From the IMG/VR virus record IMGVR_UViG_2778261223_000006, positions 1-6,761 of that record: 6,761 bases of DNA; one strand, given 5' to 3'. The DNA is from a virus (lineage: Duplodnaviria > Heunggongvirae > Uroviricota > Caudoviricetes). Positions 1,010 through 6,539 of the stretch are shown here, piece by piece. Below the pieces are notes generated by a model. It saw nothing but the letters and a program-made list of their open reading frames with translations. It was not told where the DNA came from and did no database searches. Every line of letters begins with the position of its first letter. Position 1 is the first letter of the stretch. Position numbers and translations under genes: made by a program.

Positions 1010-2446
1010 TCAGAATCCTCCTTTCTTCTTGGATTGCGGTTCCTCGCGTTCACGGCGGCGCATTTCAGCGGACTGTTGGTCTGTGTCATAAATAGCGCCA
1101 TTTGCCTGAATGCAATACACCGTGCCGGTATTGCCATGACGATTGAGACGAAGGATTAGTTCGGTTTCACCAGGTGGAACACTGTCATCAAAAGCACCTT
1201 CACGATGGATCCCCACCCAATAATCGCAATCCTGTTCAATCTGCCCTGTATCTCGTGAGTCACTTGGTAATGGGCGTTTATTGGTTCTGCTTTCCAGTGC
1301 GCGGTTAAGCTGCGTCAGAAGCACAACAACGCAATCAAGCTCTTTGGCAAGGTTCTTCAGTCCTTTGGTGATCATGCCGTAAGCAAGGTCGTTGCGATCG
1401 GCCTTCTCAGCAGTCATTAGTGTCAGGTAATCGACCAGAATCATGCCAACACATCCTTTTTCTCGCTTGATTCGACGACTTTCGCTGACGATTTGAGCCA
1501 GAGATAATCCCGGCGTGTCGTCGATGTAAAGCAGGTCGATTTCACTCAAGCGATTGGCTGTTTCGATCGCCCTGTTGAAGTCACCATCGTAATCACCCTG
1601 ATAGCCGTCATCAGCGTCATTTGTCGCCGGAAGGTAAAAAATATTCGGGTTAACACCTGACTTCTGTCCTACCAGTTTTTCCAGTATCTGGTCACCGGGC
1701 ATTTCAAGGCTGAACATCAGAGCGGGCTTTTTCTCATGCACTGCGCAGTTGATTGCCATCTGGCTGTATAGCGTCGTTTTCCCCATCTTAGGGCGAGCGC
1801 CAATGACAAACAGAGAGCCTTTCACCAGACCTTTCGGTGACAGCATCCTGTCCAGCGATGGGATCCCTGTGCTCATTCCTCGTTGTTCGCCTGACGGGTC
1901 AAATCGCTTCTCAAGGTCGCTAACCCAGTCTTCCATGACCTCACCAAATGAGCGAAGGCCGCGACGCGATCCGGTTTTTGCATGGTCTGTCAGTTGCGTA
2001 AAAATCGCCTGAATAGCTTCGTACTTCTGCGTCGCAGTCATTCCGTTGCGGGAATAGAGCAATTCCGTCGCTTCAGTCATGCGGTTGATGGCGTAGCGTT
2101 CCATTGCGGTTTCACGAACCTGCATTGCATAGGCAACGATGTTTGCTGCGCTTGGCGTGTTCTTTGCGATCTCAGCGATATAAGCAAAACCGCCAACAGA
2201 CGCCGTTAACGATTTACGCTCCAGTTCATCGAAAAGCGTCAGGCCATCTACTGGCTTTTGCTCCCGGTGCATTCTGGTTATTTCTTCGAAAAGGATTTTG
2301 TGTGGTCGGCTGTAAAATGAATCAGGCTTCAGCATCGCCAGAACTTTCTGGACGCGCTCACTGCTGTCATCATCCAGAAGCAATCCACCAATCACCGCCT
2401 GCTCTGCCTCGATGCTATGGGGCGGCGCATAAAAATTATCGGTCAT
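1010..2446 (-). CDS. dnaB: Replicative DNA helicase, DnaB family
   Basis: Near-colinear with E. coli DnaB as I recall it: N-terminal PHSIEAEQAVIGGLLLD, FAYIAEIAKNTPSAANIVAYA, Walker A GARPKMGKTT, and LTQLNR...RPLPSDSRDTGQIEQDCD. The track ORF starts at a GTG at 2461; I prefer the ATG at 2446 (MTDNFYAPPHS...), which has SD GAGG about 10 nt upstream. Confidence 0.93.
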   Translation of the reverse strand: MTDNFYAPPHSIEAEQAVIGGLLLDDDSSERVQKVLAMLKPDSFYSRPHKILFEEITRMHREQKPVDGLTLFDELERKSLTASVGGFAYIAEIAKNTPSAANIVAYAMQVRETAMERYAINRMTEATELLYSRNGMTATQKYEAIQAIFTQLTDHAKTGSRRGLRSFGEVMEDWVSDLEKRFDPSGEQRGMSTGIPSLDRMLSPKGLVKGSLFVIGARPKMGKTTLYSQMAINCAVHEKKPALMFSLEMPGDQILEKLVGQKSGVNPNIFYLPATNDADDGYQGDYDGDFNRAIETANRLSEIDLLYIDDTPGLSLAQIVSESRRIKREKGCVGMILVDYLTLMTAEKADRNDLAYGMITKGLKNLAKELDCVVVLLTQLNRALESRTNKRPLPSDSRDTGQIEQDCDYWVGIHREGAFDDSVPPGETELILRLNRHGNTGTVYCIQANGAIYDTDQQSAEMRRREREEPQSKKKGGF

Positions 2447-3326
2447 CGTGTTCACCCTCACGAACTTTCAGGTAGGTATTATCGTTAAGCAGGAAATCAA
2501 ATCCCTTTTTGTGCCAGACGGTTCCGCGTTGATGGTTTGGGCGCTCTTCGAACATCCATCGGCAATTTTCGCCAACGTAGCTCAAATAATTTCTCCAGTC
2601 CTGCATCGTGAACCCATGCCCGTCAAGTTGGCGTGTTATTACTCCGGCTTTGCGCCAGAACGTTCGGATCTGGTTTTTACGCTTGTCATTCAGTGCGCGG
2701 ATTCTTGGCGCTTCAGGAAGGATTTCGTGGTAAGCATCGACAACATCCTGACAGCTGACGGAAGGTTTTTTCTTGTCAGACTTTTTGTCTGCTGTGGCAC
2801 TCTCTAATACGTCAGTATTAGAGATATTATTTATATTATTGTTTATGGACAACCGTTGGACAACCGTTGGACAATCTCCGCTGAGAGCCGCGCCATTACT
2901 GGTGTTTGCGTTGGACAACCGTTGGACAACCGTTGGACAATTTTTTGCCTGAAAATCGTCATATTTAACGATTGTAAACAGGCTAAATTTCTTCCCCATC
3001 GAGCAAATATTAAGCATCCCTTTCGACTCAAAAGTCCGTAATAAGCTCCGAACTTTGTTGTCGGGGATGAATGTTTCTCTGACCAGCGACGGGCGTCCAG
3101 TTATCATCTGACCGCGATCAACAGTTATCGGCCCGATATCCGTATTGACGACAGTAGATTCGTGATTAGCCTTGAGGATTAAGTGAAGCCAAAGATGTAC
3201 TGCCTGAGAGTCCTTATAGAGCCTGCTGTCCATAAACTGGCGGTGTATAGAGACATACCCCATACTGGATGCCTCCTGATGTTGTACAGGGTTATGCCTG
3301 TAATCAGCTAACTTAACGACGCCCAT
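2436..3326 (-). CDS. O: Phage replication initiation protein (lambda O-like origin-binding protein) with the origin embedded in its coding sequence
   Basis: Sits between cII and the helicase as in lambdoid replication modules. Contains internal iterons plus an AT-rich tract (2810-2940), encoding a repeated CPTVVQRLS linker peptide. SD AGGAG 6-7 nt upstream of the ATG at 3326. Sequence family not confirmed from memory. Confidence 0.75.
   Translation of the reverse strand: MGVVKLADYRHNPVQHQEASSMGYVSIHRQFMDSRLYKDSQAVHLWLHLILKANHESTVVNTDIGPITVDRGQMITGRPSLVRETFIPDNKVRSLLRTFESKGMLNICSMGKKFSLFTIVKYDDFQAKNCPTVVQRLSNANTSNGAALSGDCPTVVQRLSINNNINNISNTDVLESATADKKSDKKKPSVSCQDVVDAYHEILPEAPRIRALNDKRKNQIRTFWRKAGVITRQLDGHGFTMQDWRNYLSYVGENCRWMFEERPNHQRGTVWHKKGFDFLLNDNTYLKVREGEHDDR
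2810..2845. other. AT-rich DNA-unwinding region of the replication origin, adjacent to the iterons
   Basis: Sequence tacgtcagtattagagatattatttatattattgtttat is strongly AT-rich within an otherwise balanced coding region. It lies immediately downstream (in gene orientation) of the iterons, as in lambda ori. Confidence 0.6.
2846..2874. repeat. Origin iteron cluster 1: tandem 11-bp direct repeats ccgttggacaa (two full units and one partial)
   Basis: Direct read: tggacaa (2846-2852), ccgttggacaa (2853-2863), ccgttggacaa (2864-2874). Lies inside the O-like gene. Confidence 0.8.
2909..2940. repeat. Origin iteron cluster 2: three tandem copies of (c)cgttggacaa
   Basis: Direct read: cgttggacaa (2909-2918), ccgttggacaa (2919-2929), ccgttggacaa (2930-2940). 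Separated from cluster 1 by a 34-bp spacer. Confidence 0.8.
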
Positions 3327-3508: not shown

Positions 3509-3787
3509 TCAGGCCTCGAAGAATTCGCCGTTCTTCGGGGCTTTTTCTTTTGTCAGCATTCTGGCTACTTTCTTAGCCAGTTCCGCCAACTCCTCGTCTT
3601 CAACACCCCATTCAAGAACAGCAAGAAGCATTCCCATTTTGGGGATGAAGCTGTCTTTCCATCGCGAAATTTGCGATTCATTAATCCCTAACGCGTCGGC
3701 AACCTTTCGCTGACCACGTACAGCAATTCGATTCAGGATGTTGCTTGTAATTGCATTCGCTTTCTTGCGAGTACTTGTAAGTTGCAT
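3509..3787 (-). CDS. cII: Transcriptional activator CII
   Basis: The core SQISRWK...IPK...MLLAVLEWGVEDEE aligns with lambda CII (SQISRWKRDWIPKFSMLLAVLEWGVVDDD). The RBS/start context TTAAGGAAATACTTACATATG is lambda-like. Position directly downstream of cro and nutR. Confidence 0.9.
   Translation of the reverse strand: MQLTSTRKKANAITSNILNRIAVRGQRKVADALGINESQISRWKDSFIPKMGMLLAVLEWGVEDEELAELAKKVARMLTKEKAPKNGEFFEA
3741..3754 (+). promoter_or_regulatory. Candidate CII-binding box (TTGC-N6-TTGC) of a PRE-like promoter reading towards cro/cI, inside the 5' end of cII
   Basis: TTGC ttgtaa TTGC read on the plus strand at 3741-3754, antisense to cII codons about 11-15. Lambda PRE has the same TTGC-N6-TTGC architecture within the cII N-terminal coding region. 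No clear -10 identified. Confidence 0.35.
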
Positions 3788-3895: not shown

Positions 3896-4090
3896 CTATT
3901 TGTTTTTCTTGTTGCTTGGGAAAGGACGAACTTCCTCTCCAATCACACTGCCATCAGGCTTTACCGTAACCATAATGTTACGGCCTGCCAGAATGGCCTT
4001 GCTGATAGCGCACTGGATTACACCAAAGTCACTGGCTGCTTTAGCCTGTCCATGGATTTTGGCGTAATCGGCAAGTGTCATTCGAATCAT
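3896..4090 (-). CDS. cro: Cro repressor
   Basis: [64 protein letters not shown] aligns along its length with lambda Cro ([63 protein letters not shown]). The track begins at a GTG at 4096; I prefer the ATG at 4090, which has SD GGAG 7-8 nt upstream. Confidence 0.9.
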
Positions 4091-4119
4091 ATGCACTCTC
4101 CGTTATTAACCATGAACAA

Positions 4120-4148
4120 AGAATACTACAGGTATTCAAAGCAATCAA
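4120..4148 (-). promoter_or_regulatory. PR-like promoter for cro: -35 TTGATT (complement of 4143-4148), 17-bp spacer, -10 TATTCT (complement of 4120-4125)
   Basis: Read on the minus strand. The -10 hexamer is identical to the PL -10. Both hexamers overlap the operator palindromes. Confidence 0.6.
4121..4137. promoter_or_regulatory. Operator OR1-like site, GAATACtacagGTATTC
   Basis: 17-bp site with perfectly symmetric 6-bp arms GAATAC/GTATTC. Overlaps the PR -10. Confidence 0.6.
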
Positions 4149-4162
4149 TACTCAGGGTATTT
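4146..4162. promoter_or_regulatory. Operator OR2-like site, cAATACtcaggGTATTt
   Basis: Symmetric arms AATAC/GTATT. Overlaps the PR -35. Closely related to the OL site at 5432-5448. Confidence 0.55.
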
Positions 4163-4196: not shown

Positions 4197-4913
4197 ATGG
4201 AAAATAAAAAATCACTGACGACAGAACAGCTCGAAGACGCTAAGCGGCTTAAGGCTTTGTATGAGTCAAAAAAGAAAGAATTGGGAATAACCCAATACTC
4301 AATCGCTGATGAACTGGGTATCACCCAAGGAGCGGTAGGGCATTATCTTAATGGCAGAAACGCGCTAAACGTTGAGGTCGCATCTGGTTTTGCACGTTTG
4401 TTGCAAGTCTCAATTGCTGATTTTAGCCAGTCAATTGCTGCCAAGGTTGCAGAACAGGCAGAAAGCCTTAAGAGCGATGCCAACGTAAGGTATGCAGGGG
4501 AATACAGAGCAGGAAAGAGGTATCCGGTGTTAAGCAGTATCCAGGCTGGCTCGTGGTGTGAAGCATGCGAACCATACACCATTAAAGACATAGATGTTTG
4601 GCTTGAGTCTGACGCGCATATTCAAGGTAATGCGTTCTGGCTTAAAGTGGAAGGTGATTCAATGACGGCACCGGTTGGGTTAAGCATTCCAGAGGGAACA
4701 TTCGTTCTTTTCGATACCGGAAGGGAGGCGATCAACGGCAGCTTGGTCATAGCAAAACTTTCTGACTCTAACGAAGCAACATTCAAGAAGCTGATAATCG
4801 ACGGCGGAAATAAATACCTCAAGGGACTTAACCCTGCATGGCCTCTCGTGCCAATCAATGGAAACTGCAAGATTATAGGCGTTGCAATTGAGACAAAACT
4901 AAGGCTGGTTTGA
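4197..4913 (+). CDS. cI: CI repressor (HTH DNA-binding domain plus S24 LexA-like autopeptidase domain)
   Basis: N-terminus LTTEQLEDAKRLKALYESKKKELG matches lambda CI ([24 protein letters not shown]), with a divergent recognition helix. Ala-Gly cleavage site (IQAGSW), catalytic Ser (VEGDSMTAP) and Lys (ATFKKLI) motifs are present. Confidence 0.95.
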   Translation: MENKKSLTTEQLEDAKRLKALYESKKKELGITQYSIADELGITQGAVGHYLNGRNALNVEVASGFARLLQVSIADFSQSIAAKVAEQAESLKSDANVRYAGEYRAGKRYPVLSSIQAGSWCEACEPYTIKDIDVWLESDAHIQGNAFWLKVEGDSMTAPVGLSIPEGTFVLFDTGREAINGSLVIAKLSDSNEATFKKLIIDGGNKYLKGLNPAWPLVPINGNCKIIGVAIETKLRLV

Positions 4914-4932
4914 TCACGCAAGGGGGACGCTT

Positions 4933-5301
4933 ATGGTTGGAACCGCTATAGCAAGCTTTTTTGGGATGTTGGCAATCTCAACAATTTACGGCTTAGCGCA
5001 TGCTTTTATTGCGAAATCTCTATCAGAAAAAATAAGCCAGGCTTGGGCGCATAGATCAGCTCGTTTCATGATTCTAGTGGTCATAGCAATACAAGGGATA
5101 TCTGCATTTATCCTCTATGGATCAAGCTTATACCTGTTGTATCAAGGCGCGACATTTACGCCTTACACCAGTGATTACGGAACTCTATACGATGGTAGTG
5201 AAGACATCTCTATGGCTTGGATCGTCTTTGGTTTATCTGTGGCCGTGTCTGTTGTAGCAGACATCATTAAGGTAATTCTCGTCTTAACCTTCGCTGACTA
5301 A
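4933..5301 (+). CDS. Integral membrane protein (122 aa, about 3 TM helices) co-transcribed with cI; candidate lysogen-expressed exclusion/defence protein in the rex position
   Basis: ATG lies 19 nt after the cI stop, with SD AAGGGGGA between. Three long hydrophobic segments (residues about 5-27, 45-70, 95-120). Occupies the slot between cI and OL/PL that holds rexA/rexB in lambda. No family recognised. Confidence 0.75.
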   Translation: MVGTAIASFFGMLAISTIYGLAHAFIAKSLSEKISQAWAHRSARFMILVVIAIQGISAFILYGSSLYLLYQGATFTPYTSDYGTLYDGSEDISMAWIVFGLSVAVSVVADIIKVILVLTFAD

Positions 5302-5431
5302 CCCATAATCCCGGCAGCAATAGCTATCGGGATCCACTTCACATATCCCGCATAAAAAGCACTGAACAAGCAGATACCGAAAAAATAAATATCCTTTGTA
5401 TTCATCTGTTTATCATTATTTCATCAAAAAT

Positions 5432-5473
5432 AAATACCCTGGGTATTTACACAATAAAATACCTACAGTATTC
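5432..5473. promoter_or_regulatory. OL operators: AAATACCCtGGGTATTT (5432-5448, perfect 8-bp arms) and AAATACCtacagTATTC (5457-5473)
   Basis: Palindromes read directly. Same ATAC...GTAT half-site family as the OR sites. They overlap the PL hexamers. Confidence 0.65.
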
Positions 5474-5474
5474 T
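5446..5474 (+). promoter_or_regulatory. PL-like promoter: -35 TTTACA (5446-5451), 17-bp spacer, -10 TATTCT (5469-5474)
   Basis: Hexamers with canonical spacing, overlapped by the OL palindromes. About 190 nt upstream of the N-like gene. Confidence 0.6.
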
Positions 5475-5668: not shown

Positions 5669-5941
5669 ATGACAGTAGTCATTACATATCTGGCTGACGA
5701 TAACGCCAGAAATCGCCGCAGAGCACGCAGACAGGCTCAACGTGAACAGGCAATGCAAGAACAGCGACTGGCGCGAAAAATTGCGCTAAAGCTCTCTGGT
5801 TGCGTCAGAGCAGATAAAGCAGCATCACTCGGAAGCCTTCGCTGCAAGAAGGCAGATGAATGCAGTGGAAGTATTTGCCTGCCAAACGTAGCTATTTACG
5901 CGGCAGGCTACCGGAAATCAAAACAACTGACGGCGAGATGA
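5669..5941 (+). CDS. N: N-like transcription antitermination protein (90 aa) with N-terminal arginine-rich motif
   Basis: First gene downstream of PL/nutL. Arginine-rich motif DNARNRRRARRQAQREQ near the N-terminus, as in lambdoid N proteins that bind boxB. SD GGAGG 4 nt upstream of the ATG. Confidence 0.65.
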   Translation: MTVVITYLADDNARNRRRARRQAQREQAMQEQRLARKIALKLSGCVRADKAASLGSLRCKKADECSGSICLPNVAIYAAGYRKSKQLTAR

Positions 5942-5957
5942 TAAATTAATTTGCTAA

Positions 5958-6539
5958 TTACTTGTTTTTGCCGTGCTTATCCTGAGCGATAAGTTCATCC
6001 ATAAGACTGTCTTTCTTCCCAGCAAACCTAATGTAGCACTCATTTCTATAGCGTTCTGGGATAACAAAACGGTCGATTTCAGGATATCCAGTAGCAGAAG
6101 GTATCCGAATAAGAAGCCCTTTTTCGAGCAATGAGATTGCTTCAGGGCTTCCCTTTTCCGTTTGTAGCTGGTTATTAGCGACTACAGCGAGTGCCAAATA
6201 CGCTCTTTCTCCAAGAGTTAACGAATCAAACAAATCTTGCACGTATTTCTCTTCTTTAGATTTGCGCTTCTGAGCAGCGAATACCTCAATTCTTTCAGTC
6301 ACAGCGTGATAAGCGGAATTAACAACGCCGTTAAGCACATAGCTAACGCAAAACAACAGGATGTAATACATCCAGTAATGAGGAAGGATTTCTGGATTAT
6401 GCAGGTTTATCCATTCTTTTACGCTTACCGGCATAACAATAATCAATATGATCAGGATGATTAGCATATGAATCAACTGTTTAAGTGTCATTCCTTGCAG
6501 GAAAAAATGCATTAGTTCCTGCCACCATGAGTTGTTCAT
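5958..6539 (-). CDS. sieB: Superinfection exclusion protein B-like membrane protein (193 aa)
   Basis: Convergent with N, as sieB is in lambda/P22. N-terminal hydrophobic TM segments (LIHMLIILIILIIVMPV, YWMYYILLFCVSYVL). The sequence matches my recollection of lambdoid SieB but this is unverified. Confidence 0.65.
   Translation of the reverse strand: MNNSWWQELMHFFLQGMTLKQLIHMLIILIILIIVMPVSVKEWINLHNPEILPHYWMYYILLFCVSYVLNGVVNSAYHAVTERIEVFAAQKRKSKEEKYVQDLFDSLTLGERAYLALAVVANNQLQTEKGSPEAISLLEKGLLIRIPSATGYPEIDRFVIPERYRNECYIRFAGKKDSLMDELIAQDKHGKNK

Follow-up and report, generated by a model that had tools for sequence, protein, structure and literature searches.

The HK620 immunity module and the gene hkaS

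The window, by which we mean the whole 6,761-nucleotide stretch of phage DNA analysed here, is the immunity module of coliphage HK620, and the list of open reading frames together with Pfam and PHROG scans identified it as a lambdoid early region (Table 1). Its repressor differs from HK620 cI by one substitution in 238 aa (~99.6% identity), and the closest studied repressor is the cI of phage 434, with 52% identity. Between positions 4100 and 5700, the window is 98.4-98.8% identical over the full length to the deposited phages HK620, HK630, HK140, mEpX2, HF4s, HZ41, vB_EcoP_phi296 and phi367, and 95-96% of the same segment is covered in 611R6 and in two Stx2c-converting phages (megablast). Just past N, where P22 and lambda also have it, is a homologue of the superinfection-exclusion protein SieB; the module already has one known abortive-infection gene.

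Table 1. Features of the window, with the basis of each assignment or a remark.
Feature	Position	Strand	Basis or remark
DnaB-type helicase	1010-2461	-	ORF list, Pfam/PHROG
O-type replication initiator	2436-3326	-	ORF list, Pfam/PHROG
cII	3509-3787	-	ORF list, Pfam/PHROG
cro	3896-4096	-	ORF list, Pfam/PHROG
OR1 and OR2 operator cores, ATAC-N5-GTAT	4123-4135, 4148-4160		Pattern search; match OR1/OR2 annotated in HK620
cI repressor, HK620 immunity type, first gene of the PRM operon	4197-4913	+	HTH_3 PF01381 and Peptidase_S24 PF00717
19-nt cI-hkaS spacer	4914-4932	+	Shine-Dalgarno AAGGGGGA at 4920-4927, 5-6 nt before the ATG
hkaS, 122 aa, predicted three-helix inner-membrane protein	4933-5301	+	ATG start
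Stem-loop just past the hkaS stop	5308-5333	+	-13.7 kcal/mol, z = -3.8, no U tract
OL3 (probable), OL2 and OL1 operator cores	5389-5401, 5434-5446, 5459-5471		Pattern search; right-hand boundary of the slot
N	5669-5941	+	PF25694
SieB homologue	5958-6539	-	PF14163, E = 3.8e-24; PHROG 1301, E = 1.6e-122

The open reading frame that follows cI is the gene hkaS of the HK620 record AF335538, where it has been annotated since 2001 with the product 'unknown', flanked by cI on one side and by the features tIMM, OL3-OL1, pL, nutL and N on the other. The protein encoded in the window is 96% identical to HK620 HkaS (AAK28867). PHROG 6534, a family without an assigned function, is the HkaS family: the match has E = 4e-78 and runs over residues 1-122 on profile positions 1-122. 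RefSeq names the product a hypothetical protein (WP_089592228), and hkaS is present in 16 deposited phage records. Among 5426 complete E. coli genomes, the cI and the hkaS of the window were each found in 146, at 147 places each, so that about 2.7% of these genomes carry hkaS; the co-occurrence of the two genes in this collection rests on the matching counts, the two lists of genomes not having been matched one by one. An earlier note on this DNA had taken the open reading frame for the best candidate in the window for a novel exclusion or abortive-infection determinant and had placed it in no known family. The open reading frame as such is not new, because the gene is already catalogued in HK620, in other phage records and in E. 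coli genomes. The statement that it fits no known family stands for characterised families and fails in the literal sense, since the protein is an annotated HkaS with a full-length PHROG match. We found no paper naming hkaS together with HK620 or with the hkaS accessions, and no functional study of it.

Operators and the boundaries of the slot

The operator core ATAY-N5-GTAT occurs at OR1, OR2, OL3, OL2 and OL1, with 12 strand-matches against 0.27 expected. The OR1 and OR2 cores, in the divergent PR/PRM control region between cro and cI, are conserved in all lineages, and a PL-like promoter has its -35 element from 5446 and its -10 element ending at 5474. Since all five operator sites keep their positions in every lineage, the phages with HK620-type operators are probably homoimmune. 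The labels of the HK620 record differ from ours at one point. The site at 5386-5404 (core 5389-5401), labelled tIMM in that record, fits the operator consensus AAATAT-CCTTT-GTATTC and keeps its position in four divergent lineages, and the 'OL3' of the record (about 5410-5426 in the window) misfits the consensus. Judged by the consensus, the true OL3 is probably the core at 5389-5401, 45 bp from OL2.

Inside hkaS, at 5089-5101 and 5130-5142, are two more ATAY-N5-GTAT cores at a distance of 41 bp. One of them overlaps the codons of an invariant YLLY motif, and the other is very similar to OL3 in reverse complement. The E. coli type has both cores and the Hafnia type has one; neither occurs in the Salmonella lineage or in the divergent lineage represented by locus L007, and they are probably coincidental or lineage-specific. 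Convergent with hkaS and overlapping its stop codon by 4 nt is a hydrophobic 35-aa open reading frame, 5405..5298 on the minus strand (MNTKDIYFFGICLFSAFYAGYVKWIPIAIAAGIMG), which has its ATG inside the OL3-like site and no clear Shine-Dalgarno sequence. It is present in HK620 and partly in the Hafnia type and is absent in the Salmonella and L007 lineages, and we consider it probably not a gene.

Arrangement of cI and hkaS

The cI gene ends with TGA at 4911-4913 and hkaS starts with ATG at 4933, leaving a gap of 19 nt; both this distance and the presence of a Shine-Dalgarno sequence belonging to hkaS itself are as the earlier note had described them. An AAGGA-type Shine-Dalgarno sequence is kept at equal distance in all four divergent lineages despite the differing sequences of the spacers. 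The length of the spacer is polymorphic, with 17, 18 and 19 nt in 63, 11 and 5 IMG/VR loci (L026-L105), so that the window carries the rare 19-nt form, and in the divergent loci hkaS follows cI after 17-20 nt. Where the spacer has 17 nt, the hkaS frame extends upstream to a TTG that overlaps the cI stop, and a 129-aa database entry (P0001) corresponds to this longer reading. We rejected this upstream start, as the frame is not kept across the 17-, 18- and 19-nt spacers.

No promoter-like or terminator-like site was predicted between cI and hkaS. Thus hkaS is arranged like a PRM-operon accessory gene: it shares the strand of cI, lies between cI and OL/PL and is preceded by no intervening promoter or terminator, and every homologous locus is alike in this respect. 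Together with the precedent of lambda and 434, this architecture strongly implies that cI and hkaS would be co-transcribed, and by homology with the lambda and 434 operons (PMC3564112) we infer that hkaS is expressed in the lysogen with the repressor from PRM. The proposal that hkaS is translationally coupled to cI therefore divides into two parts: the shared transcript is strongly implied, whereas coupling in the strict sense is only possible, because a gap of 17-19 nt and an independent Shine-Dalgarno sequence separate the two genes.

The stem-loop just past the hkaS stop recurs in every lineage, including those of Salmonella, Hafnia and L007, each time with a different sequence (z = -2.5 to -4.3) and each time lacking a U tract. 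This hairpin probably forms the 3' end of the cI-hkaS transcript or stabilises that transcript. The G+C content of hkaS is 0.42 and that of cI 0.46, which does not mark hkaS as foreign.

Reach of the family and linkage to the repressor

An exhaustive HMMER profile search of 1.84 billion representatives at 50% identity returned one full-length HkaS cluster and one 44-aa fragment. A word-indexed protein search found 12 HkaS clusters down to 52% identity, among which all members that are not frameshifted are 122 aa long and can be aligned gap-free. Where a source is named, it is Escherichia, Salmonella or Hafnia. There was no match in the GTDB species-representative genomes, in which the prophage is absent, and none of 72,556 plasmids carried a homologue. 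The family was found only in Enterobacterales prophages with the HK620 repressor type and never outside the slot between cI and OL. In IMG/VR, cI lay directly upstream of hkaS in all 79 loci that extend far enough.

The gene order in every divergent locus is cro (-), cI (+), hkaS (+), a non-coding stretch and an N-type gene. Across the divergent lineages, identities are 86-97% for cI, 81-95% for Cro and 52-82% for HkaS, and N is often unrelated (26-44%). This pattern places a mosaic joint between OL/PL and N and makes hkaS part of the immunity module. That hkaS is tightly linked to cI follows from the geometry of the module, because cI must stay with both operator sets and hkaS is trapped between cI and OL. 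A linkage forced in this way is not in itself evidence of a functional tie.

The module is carried by the P22-like podoviruses HK620 and 611R6 (Lederbergvirus), the HK97-like siphovirus HK140 (Hendrixvirinae) and Sepvirinae phages such as phi296. The role of HkaS is thus not tied to one virion type or DNA-delivery machine, and the passage of the gene across virion types fits a general function in the lysogen and not a virion-specific one. HK140, 611R6 and Stx2_EH1904 (L023, L024 and L025) have about 90-340 bp more DNA than the window, with the cI-hkaS-OL block unchanged; in HK140 and 611R6 the extra DNA lies, according to the annotation, downstream of PL, between nutL and N, and contains short annotated ORFs. 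We also considered svsR of NC-SV (PMC12803456) as a possible link and discarded it, as the repressor is annotated differently and we found nothing that would tie svsR to the HK620 immunity type.

Selection on hkaS

Entrapment between cI and the operators could by itself preserve the DNA without selection on the protein, in which case hkaS would be a non-functional, hitch-hiking open reading frame. Such an origin would agree with the faster evolution of HkaS, which at nonsynonymous sites is 4-5 times that of cI, and with a few database entries in which the N terminus is frameshifted. Within the IMG/VR loci, synonymous polymorphism per codon is similar in the two genes (0.163 in hkaS and 0.146 in cI), whereas nonsynonymous polymorphism is 7 times higher in hkaS (0.146 vs 0.021). 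The nonsynonymous changes in hkaS are mostly conservative (A/S, I/V/L/M and S/T), with no sign of an arms race. In the frameshifted entries (P0006, P0007 and P0009, with 1-2 member sequences each), the first ~27 residues, corresponding to the first transmembrane segment, are out of frame and the frame is later regained, a pattern that points to sequencing errors in homopolymers or to paired indels within T runs.

Several observations speak against a mere hitch-hiker. The comparison of the hkaS of the window with the Hafnia-type homologue gave dS = 0.70 and dN = 0.10, hence dN/dS = 0.145. In the comparisons with the Salmonella and L007 lineages, pS has reached saturation (0.77-0.80) and pN is only 0.27-0.32, yet the gene has exactly 122 codons across the lineages. 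All 80 E. coli-type loci from IMG/VR have an intact open reading frame, free of stops and frameshifts, and the Shine-Dalgarno sequence is conserved. The C-terminal octapeptide ILVLTFAD is invariant although its codons differ synonymously (GCT/GCC and GAC/GAT), so that the constraint is on the protein. Moreover, a simple deletion would be viable, given that the slot is empty in HK97, P22 and mEp213, yet no case of loss of hkaS was found among the loci examined. We conclude that hkaS is a real, selected gene under purifying selection that is clear but weaker than that on cI, and we regard a non-functional reading frame as very improbable.

Predicted structure and topology of HkaS

The Kyte-Doolittle profile of HkaS has hydrophobic segments at about residues 2-27, 45-70 and 94-120. 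The AlphaFold2 model, calculated with an alignment of six sequences, has helices at 2-29, 31-38, 41-73 and 89-121 and a beta-hairpin loop at 74-88, with a mean pLDDT of 89.8. An acidic, Tyr-rich loop, YTSDYGTLYDGSEDIS, occupies residues 78-93. The description of the product as a 122-aa protein with three hydrophobic helices and an acidic loop is thus borne out by the reading frame, the hydropathy profile and the model. In all lineages, the loop 28-44 has 3-5 Lys/Arg and 0-1 Asp/Glu residues, whereas the loop 71-93 has 0-1 Lys/Arg and 2-4 Asp/Glu residues. From this positive-inside signal, we predict a topology with the N terminus outside and the C terminus inside. The predicted layout comprises TM1 (2-27), a cytoplasmic amphipathic loop (28-44), TM2 (45-70), a periplasmic hairpin loop (71-93) and TM3 (94 to about 114). 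We rejected a cleavable signal peptide, since only the E. coli and Hafnia types have the A-H-A motif after TM1 and the N terminus bears no positive charge.

The mean pairwise identity among five lineages is 58% in TM1, 71% in the cytoplasmic loop, 55% in TM2, 50% in the periplasmic loop, 50% in TM3 and 100% in the C-terminal ILVLTFAD. Other invariant residues include K33, W38, H40, R44, Q54, W96 and, within TM3, D110 and K113, as well as the motif YLLY(Q)GATF at the outer end of TM2. The conserved face of HkaS is accordingly predicted to be cytoplasmic, with the acidic periplasmic loop as the most variable part. The emphasis that had been placed on the acidic loop was overstated, as this loop is the least conserved part and the invariant parts are predicted to face the cytoplasm.

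Searches against characterised families

No Pfam family matched HkaS at threshold, and only two unrelated families below threshold appeared at E <= 1. Of these candidates, we dismissed Cation_ATPase_C as hydrophobic bias, with 19.2 bits against a cutoff of 27.3 and matches to the three closest members only. NCBIfam gave no valid match, a profile search of the PDB found nothing, and PADLOC-DB v2, with 5027 models, gave 0 families at E <= 10. The profile searches and the structure prediction that had been recommended for this protein thus related it to no characterised family or PDB entry, and HkaS is a three-helix membrane protein without detectable relatives.

Small membrane modulators and the immunity proteins against pore-forming colicins have a size and a number of helices like those of HkaS. 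This general resemblance raises the alternative that HkaS is a lysogenic-conversion factor for host physiology, unrelated to phages and acting, for example, on a transporter, on envelope stress or on tolerance of bacteriocins or antimicrobial peptides. Purifying selection and conservative substitutions fit a conserved host partner, as does the conserved cytoplasmic face. However, colicin or microcin immunity and transporter families gave no match to HkaS at E <= 1, the lack of any homologue on the plasmids searched argues against an orphan bacteriocin-immunity gene, and the confinement of the family to the cI-OL slot also speaks against a role of this kind. We consider it unlikely, if still the strongest competitor of the phage exclusion discussed below.

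Contents of the slot in other lambdoid phages

The slot holds rexA and rexB in lambda and hex in 434. On the PRM transcript, many lambdoid phages have genes for additional proteins, which most often benefit them by excluding superinfecting phages (PMC3564112). The Stx phage VT2phi_272 has in the slot an annotated DNA methyltransferase followed by a restriction endonuclease (L021:3297-5678), which looks like a complete restriction-modification system behind the repressor gene, and Stx2 II has about 1.5 kb of unnamed ORFs. The rexAB genes, hex and this restriction-modification pair uphold the premise that the interval between cI and OL/PL is where lambdoid phages place accessory genes expressed in the lysogen.

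The 434 hex gene has two reported effects: it excludes P22 from imm434 lysogens of Salmonella and, by preventing the RecA-stimulated cleavage of the repressor, it reduces spontaneous induction about 30-fold (PMC3564112). Because Hex also acts on prophage stability, the position in the slot alone does not settle the function of HkaS. One could imagine that HkaS is a Hex-like modulator of lysogeny stability or of the switch, acting from the membrane on its cytoplasmic side on cI, on RecA-dependent cleavage or on a host protease, and thereby tuning spontaneous induction. Apart from the equal slot of hex next to the closest studied repressor, this idea draws on the predicted cytoplasmic location of the invariant parts and on the association of hkaS with a single cI family (86-100% identity), from which it is never separated. 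The last point carries little weight, as entrapment explains the linkage. [quoted passage not shown] A likeness by eye between the loop 28-48 and the amphipathic helix of cIII (SLSEKISQAW vs SLLERITRKL) would have suited such a modulator; it had no statistical support (hhalign probability against cIII 0.13%) and was dropped. A Hex-like role seems to us even less likely than one in host physiology.

A possible exclusion factor

The reading that we favour, tentatively and at somewhat less than even odds, is that HkaS may be an inner-membrane exclusion factor made by the lysogen, acting through an entry block or a membrane-level abortive response. The defence role is inferred from position alone, by analogy with rexAB, hex and the restriction-modification genes in the equal slot. 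In this model, PRM would drive the transcription of hkaS together with cI in the lysogen, and PRE would do so during establishment. HkaS would be translated from its own Shine-Dalgarno sequence and inserted in the inner membrane with three helices, the N terminus out and the C terminus in. Heteroimmune phages that superinfect the lysogen would then find it a poor host, because HkaS at the inner membrane would hinder the entry of their genomes or act through an abortive response at the level of the membrane. Being dependent on PRM, hkaS would be switched off upon induction of the prophage and would not harm its own phage. The logic of the slot, this self-safe pattern of expression and the precedent of P22 SieA (PMC10883804) support an exclusion factor.

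The evidence on the other side includes the empty PADLOC search and the lack of similarity to any known exclusion protein compared. The conserved surface is predicted to be cytoplasmic and the periplasmic loop has only 50% identity, which is not what would be expected of a block on an incoming periplasmic ejection apparatus. The entry-blocking genes sieA and HK97 gene 15 adjoin ejection or tail genes and not cI. There is no sensor partner like RexA, the substitutions are conservative and the module already has SieB. A bolder version, which we hold to be doubtful, is that HkaS could be a stand-alone, sensorless membrane effector founding a new family of prophage defence, through an entry block or membrane collapse upon heteroimmune infection, or else could couple the state of the envelope to the cI switch via its invariant cytoplasmic face. 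If so, one small protein of unrelated fold would do the job of RexA and RexB, or of Hex. We thus rank exclusion first, followed by host physiology, a Hex-like modulator and, far behind, a hitch-hiking reading frame; the rest of the probability belongs to functions that we have not thought of.

Few phage genes are active in every lysogenic cell. Those co-transcribed with the repressor are of this kind, and they have repeatedly turned out to serve defence or stability (RexAB, Stk, Hex and restriction-modification). With hkaS, an orphan family occupies this repressor-linked slot in non-Stx Sepvirinae, Stx2c-converting, P22-like and one HK97-like phage. If HkaS excludes phages, a compact, single-gene membrane mechanism would be added to the catalogue of defence systems, and it could explain why strains of this immunity type fall into host-range gaps of phage panels used for therapy or typing. 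If it tunes induction, it would be relevant to the Stx-type phages carrying the module. As a defence gene, hkaS would represent a new family with a known kind of job in a known slot, that is, one more cargo gene and no new principle. It is a reasonable candidate for the protection of lysogens against other phages, and one that is sensible and cheap to test.

Comparison with known systems

Lambda RexB is alike in slot and strand, between cI and OL, and in the logic of expression, and both are small polytopic inner-membrane proteins, RexB with 144 aa and HkaS with 122 aa. However, there is no sequence or profile similarity (hhalign probability 0.7%), and the 19 nt between cI and hkaS leave the HkaS locus without a RexA-like sensor gene. 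RexB is usually described with four helices, whereas HkaS has three predicted ones.

Class I holins of the S105 type have three transmembrane segments with the N terminus out and the C terminus in, which agrees with the predicted topology of HkaS, a topology that is not specific to holins. Unlike these, HkaS ends in the hydrophobic ILVLTFAD and not in a charged tail, its gene lies in the immunity region and not in a lysis cassette, and no holin family of Pfam or PHROG matched it. HK97 gp15 is also a small accessory protein, annotated as a moron product, and reportedly (Cumby et al. 2012) a prophage-expressed membrane protein that blocks the entry of phage DNA. It differs from HkaS in having 62 aa and a gene beside that of the tape measure, and the two have no similarity (hhalign probability 0.2%).

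434 Hex, with 134 aa similar in size to HkaS, is likewise the product of a single accessory gene right after the closest characterised repressor and co-transcribed from PRM (PMC3564112). The sequences are unrelated, and re-annotated Hex has one N-terminal hydrophobic segment and a polar body, in contrast to the three-helix integral HkaS. The re-annotated Hex (OL657226, L013:2609-3013) starts with a hydrophobic, signal-peptide-like segment, MIRIAALLSILLTTSANSEC, which would place Hex outside the cytoplasm, an odd location for its reported action on RecA-stimulated repressor cleavage (PMC3564112).

P22 SieA is a prophage-expressed exclusion protein of the inner membrane with three predicted transmembrane segments, and it blocks the delivery of the genome (PMC10883804). 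It is not similar to HkaS (hhalign probability 0.3%) and is longer (162-164 aa vs 122), and sieA has its own promoter and adjoins the ejection-protein gene 16 instead of lying in the repressor operon. Among the known systems compared, SieA is nevertheless the best functional analogue of HkaS for an entry block.
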